From the NCBI RefSeq assembly GCF_054482525.1, contig NZ_CM137006.1: a DNA stretch of 64,000 bases. The stretch is one strand, 5' to 3'. Positions 26,277-61,261 of the stretch are shown piece after piece; within the stretch, counting starts at the first letter, position 1; each line of letters begins with the position of its first letter. The position numbers and the translations under genes were made by a program. Below the pieces are notes generated by a model, which saw nothing but the letters and a program-made list of their open reading frames with translations, did not search any database and was not told where the DNA came from.

Positions 26277-27044
26277 TTAACGACGACACATCTCATCAAT
26301 CATGCATGTGAAATAGTTATGCAGCCATAAAAATGAAGCCGGGATAGCGGTAGAGACTTTAGCCGTGAGAAAACGTTCTGTCGCATCCTGCTTTCCTTCG
26401 CCAGTCACCAGTAACAAAACTTCGTGGGCATTGAGAATATCCTTCAGGCCTAAGGTGATCCCACGAGTCACGGGACGGCCCGCGGTTTTTAACATCTCAT
26501 GTTGCTGTGTTCTGGCATCAAGTTGACTGATATGGCAGGCCGGTTGCAGGCTTTCTCCCGGTTCGTTCAGCCCAAGATGACCGTTTTTCCCCAACCCGAG
26601 AACGCATAAATCCAGACCGCCTTTGCGCGCAATCAGGTGCGTTACCCGTTCGCACTCTGTCTCATTTATCTCTTCGGAGCGAAAGCTGATGAGCTGGTCT
26701 TCACGCAGCCCCAGCGGCTGCACGATATGCTGTTGCAGGAAAGTTTCGCAGGTACCAGGCATAGTTAATGGCAGATCCACCCATTCGTCGAGCTTCACGA
26801 AGGTGAGCTGGCTGACATCAACCTGCTGCTGGTGGATTTTTTCTACCAGATAATGATACGTCAGTAATGGCGTGGCTCCGGTCGCCAGGCAAATCACTGC
26901 ATCCGGTTTGCTACGGATCACTGCCAATAAATATTCGCTGGCACGTTCACTTAACGCCATATAGTTTTCAACTTGCTGAAGGGTTTGCACAGGATGAAAT
27001 TCCTTAAGTAAAGAGGCACCACCAGACGCAGTGCCTCGTTCCAT
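26277..27044 (-). CDS. agaI: Putative galactosamine-6-phosphate deaminase/isomerase AgaI
   Basis: 255-aa ORF, NagB/GlcN6P-deaminase-like; last gene of aga cluster. Confidence 0.88.
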   Translation of the reverse strand: MERGTASGGASLLKEFHPVQTLQQVENYMALSERASEYLLAVIRSKPDAVICLATGATPLLTYHYLVEKIHQQQVDVSQLTFVKLDEWVDLPLTMPGTCETFLQQHIVQPLGLREDQLISFRSEEINETECERVTHLIARKGGLDLCVLGLGKNGHLGLNEPGESLQPACHISQLDARTQQHEMLKTAGRPVTRGITLGLKDILNAHEVLLLVTGEGKQDATERFLTAKVSTAIPASFLWLHNYFTCMIDEMCRR

Positions 27045-29310: not shown

Positions 29311-30183
<873 letters not shown>

Positions 30184-31338
30184 TTATGCCTGCCACGGAT
30201 GAATGATTACGCCTTGCACCACGCGGTTAACGGTGCCACTGGCTGATGGGGTATCCGGCGTATTGCCCATGTGCAGCGACTGCATCAGTGCAAACGTCTG
30301 GGCGTACATCAGGAAGCAAAATGCCTGCTCAACGTCGATAAAGTGACGGGACGGCGGCAGGATGATATGTGGACCGGCGGTAATAACGTCGTTGCTTTCC
30401 GCGGCGATAGCGATTACGCGCATCGCCTGGTTATCGCGGCGAAGTTCAGCCAGCAGATCAAGATCATACTGACGGGTGTAAGGGTGGCTGGAGACAAATA
30501 CCACCACCAGCGTTTCGTTATCGACCAGCGATTTCGGGCCATGACGGAATCCGGTCGGGGAATCATAAAAGGCCGCCAGTTTACCCGCCGTCAGTTCCAG
30601 TACTTTCAGCGCCGACTCGCGTGCTGCGCCCTGTAAGCCACCGCTGCCGAGATAAACGATCCGTTTCCACGGTGCGTAACCAAACACACCTTCGCTGAAA
30701 TCGCCCAGTGAGGTCAGGATCGCCTGGCAACGATCCGCCACGTCGCGGAAGCTCTGGCTATTGATCGTCTCAGGTGCGAAAACCGCGAGGCAGCTGGCCA
30801 TCATGGTGGTAATGCTGCTGGTCATCGCAAAGCCGCGATCGTGCGTTTCTGCGGGCATCAGCAGGGCAAACGCGTTGTCGCTGTTGATCGCGTTTTGGTA
30901 AAGAGCGCCCGCTTCGTTGCAGGTGATCGGCAGGTGATAGCATTCTGGTACAAATTGATTTGCCAGTTCCACGGCGGCGACGCTTTCCGGGCTGTTGCCG
31001 GATCGACCGAAGGAGATCAACAGTAGCGGATGAGCTGGATTCAGGTAGTCCATCGGATTAGTGACCAGATCGGTGGTCGGTACGGCGCTGAAGTTTTTAC
31101 CGGTATGGCTGGCGAGCCACGGCGCGATGATGTCACCGATAAATGCCGAGGTTCCGGCTCCGGTCAGGATTACCCGCAGATTCTCTTTGAGCAGTAACGG
31201 TTCAAGGAAGTTATTGAGCGCGGAACGTAGCGCGTCGATGTTGGTGAGTGAACGGATCCATGCGCGAGGCTGATGGCGGATCTCTTCTTCAGTCCATGTA
31301 CCGGTTGCGGCAGCAGCAGGGGTGTAATTTTCTGGCAT
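30184..31338 (-). CDS. agaS: Putative sugar isomerase/deaminase AgaS (SIS domains)
   Basis: 384-aa ORF with tandem SIS domains. Confidence 0.92.
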   Translation of the reverse strand: MPENYTPAAAATGTWTEEEIRHQPRAWIRSLTNIDALRSALNNFLEPLLLKENLRVILTGAGTSAFIGDIIAPWLASHTGKNFSAVPTTDLVTNPMDYLNPAHPLLLISFGRSGNSPESVAAVELANQFVPECYHLPITCNEAGALYQNAINSDNAFALLMPAETHDRGFAMTSSITTMMASCLAVFAPETINSQSFRDVADRCQAILTSLGDFSEGVFGYAPWKRIVYLGSGGLQGAARESALKVLELTAGKLAAFYDSPTGFRHGPKSLVDNETLVVVFVSSHPYTRQYDLDLLAELRRDNQAMRVIAIAAESNDVITAGPHIILPPSRHFIDVEQAFCFLMYAQTFALMQSLHMGNTPDTPSASGTVNRVVQGVIIHPWQA

Positions 31339-31391
31339 AACTCAATCCTTAGTCTGATGAACTTGACGTCGGGCGTTGTCGCTTTCGCTTA

Positions 31392-31520
31392 CCTTTCGTT
31401 TCATTTCACTTGGTGATGTCTTTCGTTGATTAAAATCTATAGAAAAGAAACTGAAAGTTCAATGGAGAAAAAAGAAATAAAACGAAATTTGTGATCATTG
31501 AAAGAAAAGACAAGGGAAGA
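31392..31520. promoter_or_regulatory. agaS promoter with AgaR-operator-like repeats
   Basis: cctttcgtttcatttcacttgg fits the AgaR operator pattern; further ctttcgtt/aaacgaaa copies nearby. Confidence 0.6.
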
Positions 31521-31557
31521 TTAAAGGATTGCGTAATGACGTCGCTATGTTCACCGA

Positions 31558-31615
31558 TTGCCGGATGCGGCGTACCGTAGGTCGGATCAGACGCGTTAGC
31601 GTCGCATCCGACACC
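31558..31615. repeat. REP palindromic element pair
   Basis: gccggatgcggcgtaccgtaggtcggatcagacgcgttagcgtcgcatccgacac. Confidence 0.75.
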
Positions 31616-31688
31616 GCTGCACAGATCAAAAAGAAAGAAAAAGAAAGGCCTTACGGGGGAAGTGAAGGCCCAATAATGGAGCAAACCA

Positions 31689-32822
31689 TCAAAACGAAGC
31701 TAATTGACCCTGAATCCAGATTTGTTGCACATGCAGCCCGCTATCCAGCGCAACGACGCTGGCGCGTTTGCCCGGTTTAAGCGATCCCAGAACACCATCA
31801 ACACCCAGCATTCGCGCCGGATGCAGCGACGCCATATGGATGGCTTCCGCAGGCGTTACGCCCGTTAACTCGACCATGTTGCGCACTGCTGCATCGACAG
31901 ATAGCGTACTGCCCGCCAGCCCACCGGACGCGGTACGGACAACGCCACCGTGCATCTGCACTTCTTCGCCACATAACGTATAGCGACCATCCGGCATCCC
32001 AGCTGCCTGCATCGCGTCGGTGATCAGTACGATTCTCTCTTTCGCACAGCAACAACACAGCGACATCGCCGCCGGATGCACATGATGACCATCGGCTATC
32101 AGTTCCAGCCAGGCGCGCTTGTCCGTTAATCCCGCGCCAACCATTCCCGGTTCGCGGTGATGTAAACCTGTCATCCCGTTATAGCAATGCACCAGGCCGT
32201 CGGCACCAGCATCAAATGCGGCGCGGGTTTGTTGCCAGGTCGCCGCGCTATGCCCCAGCATCACCCTTACGTTTTGCTGTTTAAGATGGCGGATGGCCTG
32301 CAATGCCCCTTCTTTTTCCGGTGCCAGCGCTACCACGCGCAAGGTGTGCTGAGAAACGGCAATCAATTGATCCAGCTCGGCAATTTCAAGCTCGCGAAAC
32401 AACTCCGGCGGATGCGCGCCTTTATTCTGCGGCGTGAAGTACGGTCCTTCGAGATAACTCCCCAGCACTTGCGCACCAGGTCCGCCGCGTTGGCAACGTT
32501 GAGCAATACGTTTCAGCGCCGCATGAATGGTATTAAGCGGCGCGGTTACGGTGGTCGGTAACCAACTGCCGACACCTTCGCGTGCCTTGTGCATTGCCAG
32601 CTTGTCGAGTACATCCGGCGCGTCATCCATTACATCAACGCCCGCACCACCATGTACATGGGTGTCGATGTAAGCGGGGCAGAGCAGTTCCGCATCGCGT
32701 TCAGTCACGCCCACTGGAATCGGTTCGATTGCTGCGATTACACCGTCAGCAATACGCAACTGATGGTCATCGAGCCATCCCTCTTCAGTCAGCAGCCTTC
32801 TGGCGCGCAGAACGTGTGTCAT
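31689..32822 (-). CDS. agaA: N-acetylgalactosamine-6-phosphate deacetylase AgaA (full length)
   Basis: MTHVLRARRLLTEEGWL…; about 377 aa; NagA-like metal-binding motifs; intact here. Confidence 0.9.
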   Translation of the reverse strand: MTHVLRARRLLTEEGWLDDHQLRIADGVIAAIEPIPVGVTERDAELLCPAYIDTHVHGGAGVDVMDDAPDVLDKLAMHKAREGVGSWLPTTVTAPLNTIHAALKRIAQRCQRGGPGAQVLGSYLEGPYFTPQNKGAHPPELFRELEIAELDQLIAVSQHTLRVVALAPEKEGALQAIRHLKQQNVRVMLGHSAATWQQTRAAFDAGADGLVHCYNGMTGLHHREPGMVGAGLTDKRAWLELIADGHHVHPAAMSLCCCCAKERIVLITDAMQAAGMPDGRYTLCGEEVQMHGGVVRTASGGLAGSTLSVDAAVRNMVELTGVTPAEAIHMASLHPARMLGVDGVLGSLKPGKRASVVALDSGLHVQQIWIQGQLASF

Positions 32823-33253
32823 ATTCCTTCCTCGACCGGACATTCTTCATGGCAGCGGCCTAACTCGTCTACCAGACTGGTCAGCCCACGGTGTCCACAC
32901 TCCAGCGCCTGCACACGGAACTCTTCACCGCTTAACCCTTCGCGCTCCAGCACCATCTCCAGTAGCAGTTGCAAATTGGTGCCGGTGATCACTTCACAGC
33001 CCGGTTTTTGCATCGCCAGCGTTGAAGCTACGCGAAACGGCGTGCCGCCCAGCAAATCTGTCAGAAAAACAATGCCGTCTTCACAATCCAGTTGGGCGAT
33101 GGCCTCTTCAAGCTGCGATGTAAGCAGCGCGGTGCTTGAGGTTTCGGGAAAATCGATGGCAATAAACTGCGATTGATCGCCGAGGATTTGCTTCATTGCT
33201 TTTTCCATGCCACTGGCAAACCCGCCATGCCCTGTCAAAATAATACTTAACAT
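32819..33253 (-). CDS. agaF: PTS N-acetylgalactosamine-specific EIIA
   Basis: 144 aa, mannose-family IIA (MLSIILTGHGGFASG). Confidence 0.88.
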   Translation of the reverse strand: MLSIILTGHGGFASGMEKAMKQILGDQSQFIAIDFPETSSTALLTSQLEEAIAQLDCEDGIVFLTDLLGGTPFRVASTLAMQKPGCEVITGTNLQLLLEMVLEREGLSGEEFRVQALECGHRGLTSLVDELGRCHEECPVEEGI

Positions 33254-33270
33254 CTAATACCTCATTGTAT

Positions 33271-34155
33271 TTAAAGGAAATGGCAGAATTTACCGACGAT
33301 ACCGAGAACCACGGTAACTGCAATCAGGCGCAGCGGACTCCAGCCGCGGCGTACCAGCCAGAACATGGTCAGGGTGTAGACCAGCGGTAAGAAGGCAGGC
33401 ATCAGTTTGTCGATAACATCAGCCTGTAACTTAACCACTGCGTCGCCCGCTGTGATTTCCAGCGTGGTGCTTAAACGAACATAGGTTGCCACCAGCGCGC
33501 CGATTACCGTCATCCCAACGATAGACGCAGCATGGCCGACTTTTTTGGTATTCGCTTTAATGAGTGGAATCGCCGCCACGCCCATGCGGTAAGCATAATG
33601 CGCCAGACCAAAACGCAGCCCCAGGTGTACCACGTTGAACAGCACAATAAAGACGACTGCGCCAAGAATAGAGCCTTGTAGCGCGAGGCTTGCGCCTATC
33701 CCGCCACAAATCGGCAGTAGCGTCAGCCAGAACATCGCATCGCCAATCCCGCCAAGTGGCGCACCGACGGCAATTTTGGTGCTCTGAATACTGTTAACGT
33801 CCTGCTTAGAACGCTCCATAGCAAGGATAATGCCGATAACAAACGTCACCAGAAACGGATGGGTATTGAAGAAACCCATATGCCCCTTCATGGCGCGCGC
33901 CAGGTCGCGTTTATTAGTGTGGATCTTTTTCAGAGCAGGCAGCAGACCGTACAACCAGCCGGAAGCCTGCATACGTTCGTAGTTAAAAGACGCTTGTAAC
34001 AGCATGGAACGCCAGGCGACGCGGTTGATATCTTTTTTCGTCAGCTCCGCGCCAATGCTCTGATCTTCATACACGTTTTCATTGACGCCAGTCAGCAATG
34101 TTTCTTCGTTTTCACTGACGTTCGGCAGGGTGGTTTGATTAGATGCCATCTTCAA
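33271..34155 (-). CDS. agaE: PTS N-acetylgalactosamine-specific EIID
   Basis: 294-aa membrane ORF paralogous to agaD. Confidence 0.88.
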   Translation of the reverse strand: MKMASNQTTLPNVSENEETLLTGVNENVYEDQSIGAELTKKDINRVAWRSMLLQASFNYERMQASGWLYGLLPALKKIHTNKRDLARAMKGHMGFFNTHPFLVTFVIGIILAMERSKQDVNSIQSTKIAVGAPLGGIGDAMFWLTLLPICGGIGASLALQGSILGAVVFIVLFNVVHLGLRFGLAHYAYRMGVAAIPLIKANTKKVGHAASIVGMTVIGALVATYVRLSTTLEITAGDAVVKLQADVIDKLMPAFLPLVYTLTMFWLVRRGWSPLRLIAVTVVLGIVGKFCHFL

Positions 34156-34918
34156 ATTCCTCTTTCTGTGCCGCAGGTTGAGTCGGTTCAGGAGATTTAC
34201 GCAGCAGGTCGATCAGCGCCATCGCCAGCGCGGCGGCAGCAATAGCCAGCACCGGTAACTTGAGCCAGGCTGCGGCAACAAAGCCCAGGATGAAGTAGGG
34301 GATGTAGACGTTTTTCATCATGATTTTCAGCAGTACGGCAAAACCGATCGCTGGCATGATGCCGCCCGCGACGCCGAGGCCGTCGATTAATCGTTGCGGC
34401 AGGACATCAATGATGGTTTTGGCATGTTCTGCGCCGAAGTAGATAGGCAGGAAAGCGCAGAGAAAATAGAAAGTGCCGAGTGCCAGCAGTGCCAGATAGT
34501 TCACGCGTTCAATGCCGCGAGTATCGGCGTTCTCTGCCATCCGGTCACAGCGGGACATTACGCCAGACATCACCGAGAACAGGAAGGTAATCCCCATCTG
34601 TACTGCGACAGCGAAAGGTACGGCGACACCGACTGCGACATCGGGTTTCACGCCAGTAGTAATGGCAAACGCCGTGCCGACGATAGTACCGATAATCACG
34701 TTAGGCGGCTGTGCGCCCGCCAGCGGGGCCAGCCCCATCCACACCAGTTCCAGCGTACCGCCGGTTAAAATACCGGTATGCAGATCGCCAAGTACCAGCC
34801 CGACTAACGGGCCGAGGACCACCGGGCGGTGCATATGGGTTAGGCCGTTAAACATATCCAGGCCAGCGATAAAGGCGATAATGCCCAACGCGAATGCCTG
34901 CAACAGACTGATTTCCAT
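34139..34918 (-). CDS. agaW: PTS N-acetylgalactosamine-specific EIIC (full length)
   Basis: 259-aa membrane ORF paralogous to agaC. Confidence 0.88.
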   Translation of the reverse strand: MEISLLQAFALGIIAFIAGLDMFNGLTHMHRPVVLGPLVGLVLGDLHTGILTGGTLELVWMGLAPLAGAQPPNVIIGTIVGTAFAITTGVKPDVAVGVAVPFAVAVQMGITFLFSVMSGVMSRCDRMAENADTRGIERVNYLALLALGTFYFLCAFLPIYFGAEHAKTIIDVLPQRLIDGLGVAGGIMPAIGFAVLLKIMMKNVYIPYFILGFVAAAWLKLPVLAIAAAALAMALIDLLRKSPEPTQPAAQKEEFEDGI

Positions 34919-35424: not shown

Positions 35425-36705
35425 TTATTGGCCTTCACAGGCTGTGTGGTACTGCGCCAGGATGTCCTGAATATGGTTGATAATGAGTTCCCGTGGCGTT
35501 GGCTGCAGCTCGCCGGAGCGAACTTTCACGTATTGCAGCGGCAAATACTGGCTGATGAGCGGTAGCGGAATTGGTGAATCCGCCAGATTACGAACCAGAT
35601 GAGCGAAAGCGTCATCAATCTGGCTGTCCGGCCAGTAATAGCGCACGCGATCCGAGTAGCTATAACCACGTGCCAGACGACGCGCGTTGCCGTCACCGTG
35701 GTAGTGGCTTTGCCAGTATTCCGGGCGGTCGAGCATCACGTTTTCCAGTACCTGACGCAGACCGGAACAGGCTTTCGCTGGCACCAGTTCTTCTTCAATC
35801 GCCGCCAGAGAGAACAGAGCTTCACGCAGGGCGAAGGTCAGCGCCGGGCCAACTTTCAGAATGGCAAAGTGGTCAATCACCAGCTGGCGCAGCGATTGCG
35901 GCGTTTGATAATCGGTAGAGTGCGCTTCGAAAATCAGCGTTTCGTAGTTTTCGACCATCTGGCTTAAGGCGCTCGCTTTGGCGGGCTGATAATCAATAAC
36001 GTTGGTGTGATCGAATTCGACGCCGGGTTGTACCACCAGAGCAATGATGCGTGGCCAGATGGCACTCAGACCTTGCTTTTCAAAGGCGTGACGATGGGCT
36101 TCCAGCGTGGCGCGGGCGGCATCCGGCGTGGTGACCGCCAGCTCGCTTAAGGTTTCATGCGCGCCGCCAGGTACCGGCACTTCGGTACCAATGACATACT
36201 CCAAATCGGCTTCGCCAAAGTGTTCACGACAGGTTTCTTCCGCCACTTTCGCCAGACGTGCGGCGCGTTCAGCCACGATGTCATCAGTTAAGGGAACCGG
36301 ATCATCCTGACAGGACATGCTGCAATCAAGGTGAATTTTTTTGAATCCTGCCGCCACGTAGCTTTTAATCAAATCATCGGCATTGGCCATTGCCTGAGCG
36401 GCAGGCAGGTTTTGCCAGCGGTTTGGACCCAGATGGTCGCCACCCAGAATCAACGCATCCTGTGGGAAATTCAATGAGTCGGCGAGCTGACAAACAAAGC
36501 CGCGAAAATCGGCGGGCGTCATTCCGGTATAGCCGCCGAACTGGTCTACCTGATTGGAGGTTGCTTCAATCAGTAACGGCGTTTGGTTTGCACTGGCGTA
36601 GCGGATTGCAGCCTCCAGCACCAGCGGATGTGCGGAACAAACGGCATAAATTCCATTTGTTTTGCCCGCTTTGTGCTGTCTCACCATTTCTGTCAGATGT
36701 TTCAC
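35425..36705 (-). CDS. kbaZ: Tagatose-bisphosphate aldolase non-catalytic subunit KbaZ
   Basis: 426-aa ORF, GatZ/KbaZ family. Confidence 0.92.
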
Positions 36706-36953
36706 TTTCCTCTCCAGTTCAGATTACTGCGATATTAATCTTTCGTTTTGTTTCAGTTGATACTGCGCCATGGTGAGATAAAAATAAAACGAAAGATAAT
36801 GGTTTTCTGATCTGATTCACAAAAGAAACATAATGAAAGCCACTGAAACGAGAGTAGCTTGCGCCAATGGGTAAGGTGGGCTTGCATTTGCTTAATAGAA
36901 AGGCGTTAATAGGCAAAACGAAATGAAACGAAAGTTTTACGAAAGGACTTACT
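36706..36953. promoter_or_regulatory. Divergent kbaZ/agaR promoter region with multiple AgaR-operator-like repeats
   Basis: ctttcgttttgtttcagttga plus inverted copies aaaacgaaag and aaacgaaatgaaacgaaagtttt. Confidence 0.6.
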
Positions 36954-37763
36954 ATGAGTAATACCGACGCTTCAGGTGAGAAGCGAATGACAGGCACCAG
37001 CGAGCGACGAGAACAGATCATTCAGCGTCTGCGACAGCAAGGGAGTGTGCAGGTTAACGATCTGTCGGCATTGTATGGCGTATCTACTGTGACGATCCGC
37101 AACGATCTGGCGTTTCTGGAAAAGCAGGGGATCGCTGTGCGTGCCTATGGCGGCGCGTTGATCTGCGATAGCACGACGCCGTCAGTCGAGCCATCAGTGG
37201 AAGATAAAAGCGCGCTGAATACCGCAATGAAACGCAGCGTTGCGAAAGCTGCCGTTGAGTTGATTCAGCCAGGTCATCGGGTGATCCTCGATTCCGGGAC
37301 CACCACTTTTGAGATTGCTCGTCTGATGCGCAAGCACACTGACGTAATTGCGATGACCAACGGTATGAACGTAGCTAATGCGTTGCTGGAAGCGGAAGGC
37401 GTTGAGCTGCTGATGACCGGCGGGCATTTGCGCCGTCAGTCGCAATCTTTTTACGGCGATCAGGCTGAACAATCGCTGCAAAATTACCACTTCGATATGC
37501 TGTTTCTTGGCGTAGATGCGATCGATCTGGAGCGCGGCGTCAGCACGCATAATGAAGATGAAGCCCGTTTAAACCGCCGGATGTGCGAAGTTGCGGAACG
37601 GATCATCGTGGTCACCGATTCCAGTAAGTTCAATCGTTCCAGTTTACATAAGATCATTGATACTCAACGTATCGACATGATCATTGTTGATGAAGGCATT
37701 CCTGCGGATAGTCTGGAAGGACTGCGAAAGGCTGGGGTTGAAGTGATTCTGGTCGGGGAGTGA
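36954..37763 (+). CDS. agaR: DeoR-family repressor AgaR
   Basis: 269 aa, N-terminal HTH ([23 protein letters not shown]) and DeoR C-terminal domain. Confidence 0.93.
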
Positions 37764-60739: not shown

Positions 60740-61261
60740 TCAGGCTCCGGATGACTTTCGTTTTTTCTCCAGCTCCTGGCGCTTTTTTTCCAGGAGATGC
60801 TCCTGCATGGCTTTCAGATATGCATTTTCTGCGCGAAGATAACGCAGCTCATTCTTCATCTCTTCCGGCGTCATGTTTGCCTCGTTTTCATGGGTATCAT
60901 CAGAACGGGTCATGCTTTTCTCCTTCCTGCGCCTGATAAAGGCCTCATTACCAGATTTGCGGTAGCCTTTTATCCAGTTTTTAACCGTGTTGTGGCTGGG
61001 AATGTTAAACCGGGCAGCTACCCGGGGTAGAGACTCAGAATGCCCGAGAGCATAAAGAACCACGCAAAGTTTATCTTCAGGAGAATAGCTACGCTTGTGT
61101 CTGCAATCCAGTGCCCGAGGACCGTGAAGAAGAAAAAGATTAATCCAGTGTGAGAGGCTGGTGTGAGAAAGTTGAAAGAGTTTTGCCGTAGAAATGATGC
61201 CTGCATGACCAGCCAGGTAGTGATTTACAGCGGCAAGTTTTACTTCAAATGAATGTTTCAT
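60740..61261 (-). CDS. insJ: IS3-family transposase OrfA (HTH), IS150 InsJ-like
   Basis: MKHSFEVKLAAVNHYLAGHAGIISTAKLFQLSHTSLSHWINLF… 173 aa. Confidence 0.88.
   Translation of the reverse strand: MKHSFEVKLAAVNHYLAGHAGIISTAKLFQLSHTSLSHWINLFLLHGPRALDCRHKRSYSPEDKLCVVLYALGHSESLPRVAARFNIPSHNTVKNWIKGYRKSGNEAFIRRRKEKSMTRSDDTHENEANMTPEEMKNELRYLRAENAYLKAMQEHLLEKKRQELEKKRKSSGA

Follow-up and report, generated by a model that had tools for sequence, protein, structure and literature searches.

An AgaR operator-like array of T-rich boxes at the agaS promoter of Escherichia coli

The DNA directly upstream of agaS carries repeated T-rich motifs on both strands (31392-31520), which raises the question of whether they are operators for the AgaR repressor and, if so, which of the copies matter. 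We examined this array within the window, a 64-kb stretch of DNA from contig NZ_CM137006.1 that contains the complete aga/gam cluster of E. coli on its minus strand, as judged from the list of open reading frames and the annotation of strain N3. Gene names follow the RefSeq annotation of N3, whose agaA-agaS intergenic region is 100% identical to that of the window. The array lies inside this 350-bp region (31339-31688), with its boxes 54-153 bp upstream of the start codon of agaS, the first gene of the regulated operon agaS-kbaY-agaBCDI. The agaR gene is found about 5.5 kb from the array in the same window, and its product has HTH_DeoR (1.9e-21) and DeoRC (3.3e-55) domains. A separate feature of this strain is that agaW, agaE, agaF and agaA are all intact (32819-34918, minus strand), which gives it the full GalNAc transport and deacetylase gene set, whereas a deletion in K-12 leaves agaW and agaA as pseudogenes. 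The features that are discussed below are collected in Table 1.

Table 1. Genes, boxes and promoter elements of the aga locus, in window coordinates
Feature	Coordinates	Strand	Remarks
agaI	26277-27044	-	followed by agaD, agaC, agaB
kbaY	29311-30171	-	
agaS	30184-31338	-	SIS-domain galactosamine-6-phosphate deaminase/isomerase (ORF, N3 annotation, Pfam SIS)
Partial box GCTTTCGCTT	31381-31390	+	Escherichia-specific; identity across genera 0.28; PWM 10.6
O_B, putative AgaR operator TACCTTTCGTTTCATTTCACTTGG	31390-31413	+	inverted relative to agaS; predicted transcribed leader, ~+14 to +37
Partial box TCTTTCGTTGA	31419-31429	+	over the predicted start site; Escherichia-specific; exact CTTTCGTT at 31420; identity 0.44
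Core promoter Ps, predicted	31434-31462	-	-35 TTGAAC (31462-31457), 17-nt spacer, -10 TAGATT (31439-31434)
Spacer box AACTTTCAGTTTCTTTTCT, AgaR-type	31442-31460	-	fills the -35/-10 spacer; conserved block in the 17-species alignment
O_A, putative AgaR operator CAAATTTCGTTTTATTTCTTTTTT	31468-31491	-	same orientation as agaS; ~-42 to -65; abuts the CRP half-site
Candidate CRP site	31487-31508		good half-site TGTGA 31490-31494 (+), TCACA on the minus strand; distal half poor
T/C-rich stretch CTTCCCTTGTCTTTTCTTTCAA	31498-31519	-	upstream of the CRP half-site; degenerate motif copy with one CTTTC core; identity 0.31
Distal matrix match GGCCTTTCTTTTTCTTTCTTTTTG	31627-31650	-	3 consensus mismatches; 21.8 bits; outside 31392-31520
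Hairpin GGGCCTT...AAGGCCC	31646-31671	-	18 nt past the agaA stop codon; minimum-free-energy fold
agaA	31689-32822	-	followed by agaF, agaE, agaW, agaV
kbaZ	35425-36705	-	
Sister operator array, agaR-kbaZ intergenic	36737-36948		36737-36760 (+), 36775-36798 (-), 36819-36842 (-), 36914-36937 (-), 36925-36948 (-); from consensus and PWM
agaR	36954-37763	+	divergent; intact gene for the cognate DeoR-family repressor, 269 aa (domains and annotation)

The motif is concentrated in the aga control regions far beyond chance. The string CTTTCGTT has 10 matches in the window where 2.7 are expected (none of 100 shuffles reaches 10), and the two aga control regions, which account for less than 1% of the window, contain five of the ten. 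CTTTC/GAAAG cores are nowhere denser in the 64 kb than at 31382-31531, where 150 bp hold 5 of them and the mean is 0.47. A 24-nt AgaR consensus that reportedly goes back to Ray and Larson (WRMMTTTCRTTTYRTTTYNYTTKK, a string for which a full-text literature search found no paper) has six matches with up to three mismatches where 0.15 are expected in the window. None of the six falls outside the agaA-agaS and agaR-kbaZ intergenic regions, and they include perfect matches at O_B and at 36914-36937 (-) and a match with a single mismatch at O_A.

A cross-trained matrix leads to the same sites. A position weight matrix (PWM) was derived solely from the agaR-kbaZ region, from its six CTTTC-anchored 24-mers, and applied to all 64 kb; with six sites it is crude, and the peak scores of simulated 64-kb sequences, which usually reach 10-17 bits, came to 23.6 bits in one of 20. 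The three best matches outside the training sites are O_B (23.5 bits), O_A (22.9 bits) and the distal match (21.8 bits), all within the agaA-agaS intergenic region. The best match outside the aga control regions is TGACTTTCGTTTTTTCTCCAGCTC at 60752-60775 (+), with 16.7 bits; because this score is within the range reached by simulated sequences, the match is probably due to chance. The first-pass annotation had read the interval as an AgaR operator-like array at the agaS promoter and had named a motif scan as one check. O_B and O_A pass that scan well above the best match elsewhere, and the reading is further supported by the position of the array upstream of agaS and by its near-identity to the K-12 locus.

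The same annotation had described several motif copies in both orientations, and this description holds if degenerate copies are counted, whereas the interval has a single exact copy of the 9-mer CTTTCGTTT. The clearest copies are the 22-mer cctttcgtttcatttcacttgg (31392-31413, +), the two occurrences of CTTTCGTT at 31393 and 31420 (+), and AAACGAAA at 31480-31487 (+), which reads TTTCGTTT on the minus strand. Degenerate copies are found at 31381-31390 (+), 31442-31460 (-) and 31498-31519 (-). Three of the copies in the array are conserved across genera, namely O_A, the spacer box and O_B, and those at 31381-31390, 31419-31429 and 31498-31519 are specific to Escherichia and probably play an accessory part.

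These boxes appear to cover a promoter, Ps, which we placed by eye and by conservation. Its hexamers match the consensus at only 8 of 12 positions, which is why a consensus sigma-70 promoter scan of 31300-31720 called none; such a weak promoter fits one that needs an activator. If transcription starts near 31426-31427, then the boxes span Ps from about -65 to +37. With the same predicted start, the center of the candidate CRP site (31497.5) would fall at about -71.5, which is a class I position. Ps is said to depend on CRP, in the work of Ray and Larson. Read along the sense strand, the elements follow in the order agaA stop codon, hairpin with its T/C-rich tail, REP-type palindrome (about 31600-31540), CRP half-site, O_A, -35, spacer box, -10, predicted start, O_B, Shine-Dalgarno sequence and the ATG at 31338.

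The REP-type palindromic element between the probable agaA terminator and the agaS promoter (31540-31600) differs from the K-12 version. In 1,388 E. coli genomes, the full intergenic region is matched at only 80-90% identity, and this REP difference is probably the explanation. An Rfam search of 31250-31750 gave only sub-threshold matches at chance level, among them one to naRNA4 (24.8 bits against a gathering score of 59.5) that reflects the REP palindrome.

The corresponding promoter of K-12 MG1655 has the same locus, gene order and boxes. The segment 31330-31511 differs from it at three positions, none of them in O_A or O_B, while the REP-containing part further upstream diverges more; the agaR-kbaZ region is 99% identical. 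Of the other differences from K-12 (the agaW-agaA segment, the REP element and a T for G in the distal tail), none touches O_A, the spacer box or O_B. For K-12, AgaR binding and repression at the agaS promoter have been reported (Ray & Larson 2004, Mol Microbiol 51:813, as cited in passages of PMC3668189, PMC5018945 and PMC8667592). PMC3668189 covers the nearly identical sequences of both K-12 and E. coli C, with relief of repression by GalNAc/GalN, and states that a Ps-lacZ fusion is induced about 20-fold by GalNAc. A passage of PMC5018945, citing Leyn et al. 2012, describes AgaR as binding in tandem to repeats of these intergenic regions. A published AgaR binding sequence taken from PkbaZ, CTTTCGTTTCATTT(T)CGTTT (PMC8667592, Table S3), maps to 36916-36934, and its first 15 bases are shared with 31393-31407. 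The agaS array is thus already known: it comprises the AgaR operators of Ps, an ordinary control region that was described experimentally in 2004.

We assign a probability of roughly 0.93 to the reading that the array is the operator region of Ps, driving agaS-kbaY-agaBCDI, and that AgaR binds its T-rich boxes. AgaR would recognize boxes of the type cTTTCGTTTyaTTTc, and the three conserved ones would cover Ps: O_A upstream of the -35 element where it touches the CRP site, the spacer box between -35 and -10, and O_B in the early transcribed region. AgaR is reported to form tetramers (PMC10991401). With about 31 and 62 bp between their starts, or three and six helical turns, all three boxes could be held by an AgaR oligomer on one face of the DNA, and this spacing makes cooperative binding there the most likely mechanism. 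The bound oligomer would deny RNA polymerase access and interfere with CRP. An inducer produced in the course of GalNAc or GalN catabolism would then release AgaR and permit CRP-assisted transcription.

We scanned one genome per species (100,044 species) for the exact 19-mer core CTTTCGTTTCATTTCRYTT and obtained 93 loci, of which 61 lie beside aga genes as identified by tblastn with the Aga proteins of the window. The aga-linked loci are situated between agaR and kbaZ or upstream of agaS, and they come from about 20 genera of enterobacteria, among them Escherichia, Citrobacter, Salmonella, Klebsiella, Raoultella, Enterobacter, Lelliottia, Kluyvera and Buttiauxella, and further Trabulsiella, Cedecea, Pluralibacter, Pantoea, Izhakiella, Ewingella, Yersinia, Biostraticola and Morganella.

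The remaining 32 of the 93 matches were considered as signs of a wider regulon, and this idea was rejected, since they consist of unrelated T-rich DNA, a palindromic repeat in an Acidobacteria metagenome-assembled genome (MAG) and probable contamination of a Planctomycetota MAG. In the last case, positions 28-206 of locus L047, on a contig binned as Planctomycetota, are identical to the agaR-kbaZ intergenic DNA of E. coli K-12, and this DNA is probably E. coli contamination of the MAG. A palindromic repeat of about 95 nt (AGAGATAACGGAACAAACGAAA...TTTCGTTTGTTCCGTTATCTCT), present on three contigs of a single Acidobacteria MAG (L060 6602-6740, L061 1263-1401 and L062 3260-3398), happens to contain the 19-mer; it resembles a dispersed repeat element that has nothing to do with aga. 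One further locus, from an uncultured bacterium (L020, 6228-6406), has two CTTTCGTTT boxes just upstream of a promoter-like TTGACT...TATACT site. A DeoR-family gene whose product is 32% identical to AgaR adjoins these boxes and a kbaY-like aldolase gene is nearby; the arrangement may be distantly related to the AgaR operator system.

The main alternative is that another regulator, such as a paralogous DeoR-family repressor or a nucleoid protein, is the principal binder and that AgaR contributes little at Ps. Several DeoR-family paralogues exist in E. coli, the sequence by itself does not name the binding protein, and the distant DeoR-family gene of the uncultured bacterium also has CTTTCGTTT boxes upstream. 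Yet the boxes co-occur strictly with agaR-linked aga clusters, and deletion of agaR alone makes agaS constitutive, and in E. coli C the loss of agaR raised agaS 175-fold (PMC3668189). We regard a different principal regulator as highly improbable on these grounds.

Which of the copies are conserved was read from an alignment of 17 agaS upstream regions, from the window and 16 other species. Nine of these species form an unbiased sample, having been retrieved through a match at the other promoter. In these nine, identity to the window is high in a series of blocks: 1.00 in the CRP half-site TCACA, 0.82 in O_A, 0.91 in the -35 element TTGAAC, 0.81 in the spacer box, 0.94 in the -10 element TAGATT, 0.80 in O_B and 0.89 in the Shine-Dalgarno sequence with the start codon. 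Identity in the DNA between the conserved blocks drops to 0.28-0.48 in the same species. The intervening sequence is free to vary, yet the spacing is kept: O_A and the spacer box are 30-33 bp apart in the 17 promoters, and the distance between the spacer box and O_B is 62 bp in 11 of them, 61-63 bp in 15 and 54 bp in the other two. When the matrix trained on E. coli is applied to the 17 promoters, O_A and O_B are detected in every one of them at matching positions, against a background of 0.008 hits per 265 nt. The spacer box has the form CTTTCGTTTTCTTTTCT in most other genera and reaches 14 bits or more on the AgaR matrix in many orthologues, against less than 14 bits in the window itself. 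Sequence, position and spacing of O_A, the spacer box and O_B are therefore kept in the 16 other enterobacterial agaS promoters.

The alignment also bears on the idea that the boxes are a by-product of an AT-rich, T-rich promoter and leader with no specific protein partner. The sense strand is indeed T-rich, the degenerate copies at 31381-31390, 31419-31429 and 31498-31519 are not conserved, and T-rich 19-mers turn up in unrelated genomes as well (32 of the 93 loci). Against this, the boxes keep their C and G positions across about 15 genera while neighboring T-rich DNA drifts, and within the 64 kb such boxes are otherwise found only at the agaR-kbaZ promoters. AgaR binding at the agaS promoter is moreover recorded in a passage of PMC3668189, and we consider a compositional by-product even less probable than a different regulator. 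An RNA-level role for O_B as a leader element of the agaS mRNA rather than a DNA operator, which its place at about +14 to +37 would allow, is just as improbable, as the same sequence occurs in both orientations and at untranscribed positions at agaR-kbaZ, matches no Rfam family, and owes its leader placement to a predicted start.

With AgaR retained as the regulator of Ps, a final question concerns the distal matrix match, which was at first a candidate for a clear fourth operator and was downgraded on account of the hairpin directly upstream of it. The fold gives this hairpin followed by UUUCUUUUUCUUUCUUUUU, with a z-score of only -1.3. A terminator scan of 31300-31720 did not call it, probably because its 6-bp G+C-rich core stem encloses about 12 nt, which exceeds the 8-nt loop limit of the scanner. 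In other genera, hairpins of different sequence occupy the same place and are followed in most by a tail CCTTTCTTTTCCTTTC(GTTT). The hairpin and its T/C-rich tail are probably the intrinsic terminator of kbaZ-agaVWEFA, and a terminator tail is the simplest reading of 31627-31650.

The tail could in addition serve as a distal AgaR operator, because its C positions are fixed and the K-12 version has a full CTTTCGTTTT core, although we consider this unlikely. The K-12 tail reads CTTTCGTTTTG and that of the window CTTTCTTTTTG, with a T in place of the K-12 G. If the tail is bound, an AgaR oligomer that also holds the phased proximal boxes would loop or wrap about 250 bp of DNA. One sequence would then act as both terminator tail and operator, and the REP insertion of E. 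coli and the G-to-T change of this strain would tune the loop.

For the strain itself, the analysis confirms a complete GalNAc/GalN pathway under normal regulation and supplies precise coordinates for its annotation. What is new is modest and comparative: the boxes that selection maintains across genera are identified, along with the degree to which their spacing is fixed.

The AgaR of Streptococcus (PMC5018945, PMC4694137) shares the name and the pathway, but it is a GntR-family regulator and is no model for this site, because both the protein family and the operator are unrelated. Much closer are the agaR and kbaZ promoters (Pr and Pz) of the same cluster, which have the same type of box. 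There, the convergent pair 36737-36760 (+) and 36775-36798 (-) surrounds the kbaZ core promoter in the manner of the spacer box and O_B at Ps. The agaR-kbaZ region differs in having at least five boxes, more than Ps, and in the separation of its convergent pair, which is 53 bp compared with 62 bp at Ps. In its overall arrangement, with an oligomeric repressor and several operators over or beside the promoter, the agaS control region resembles those of DeoR at deo, GlpR at glp and UlaR at ula. The recognition sequence of AgaR nevertheless differs from those of these systems: AgaR boxes are T-rich near-direct repeats of TTTCR units, whereas the operators of DeoR and GlpR are described as palindromes.
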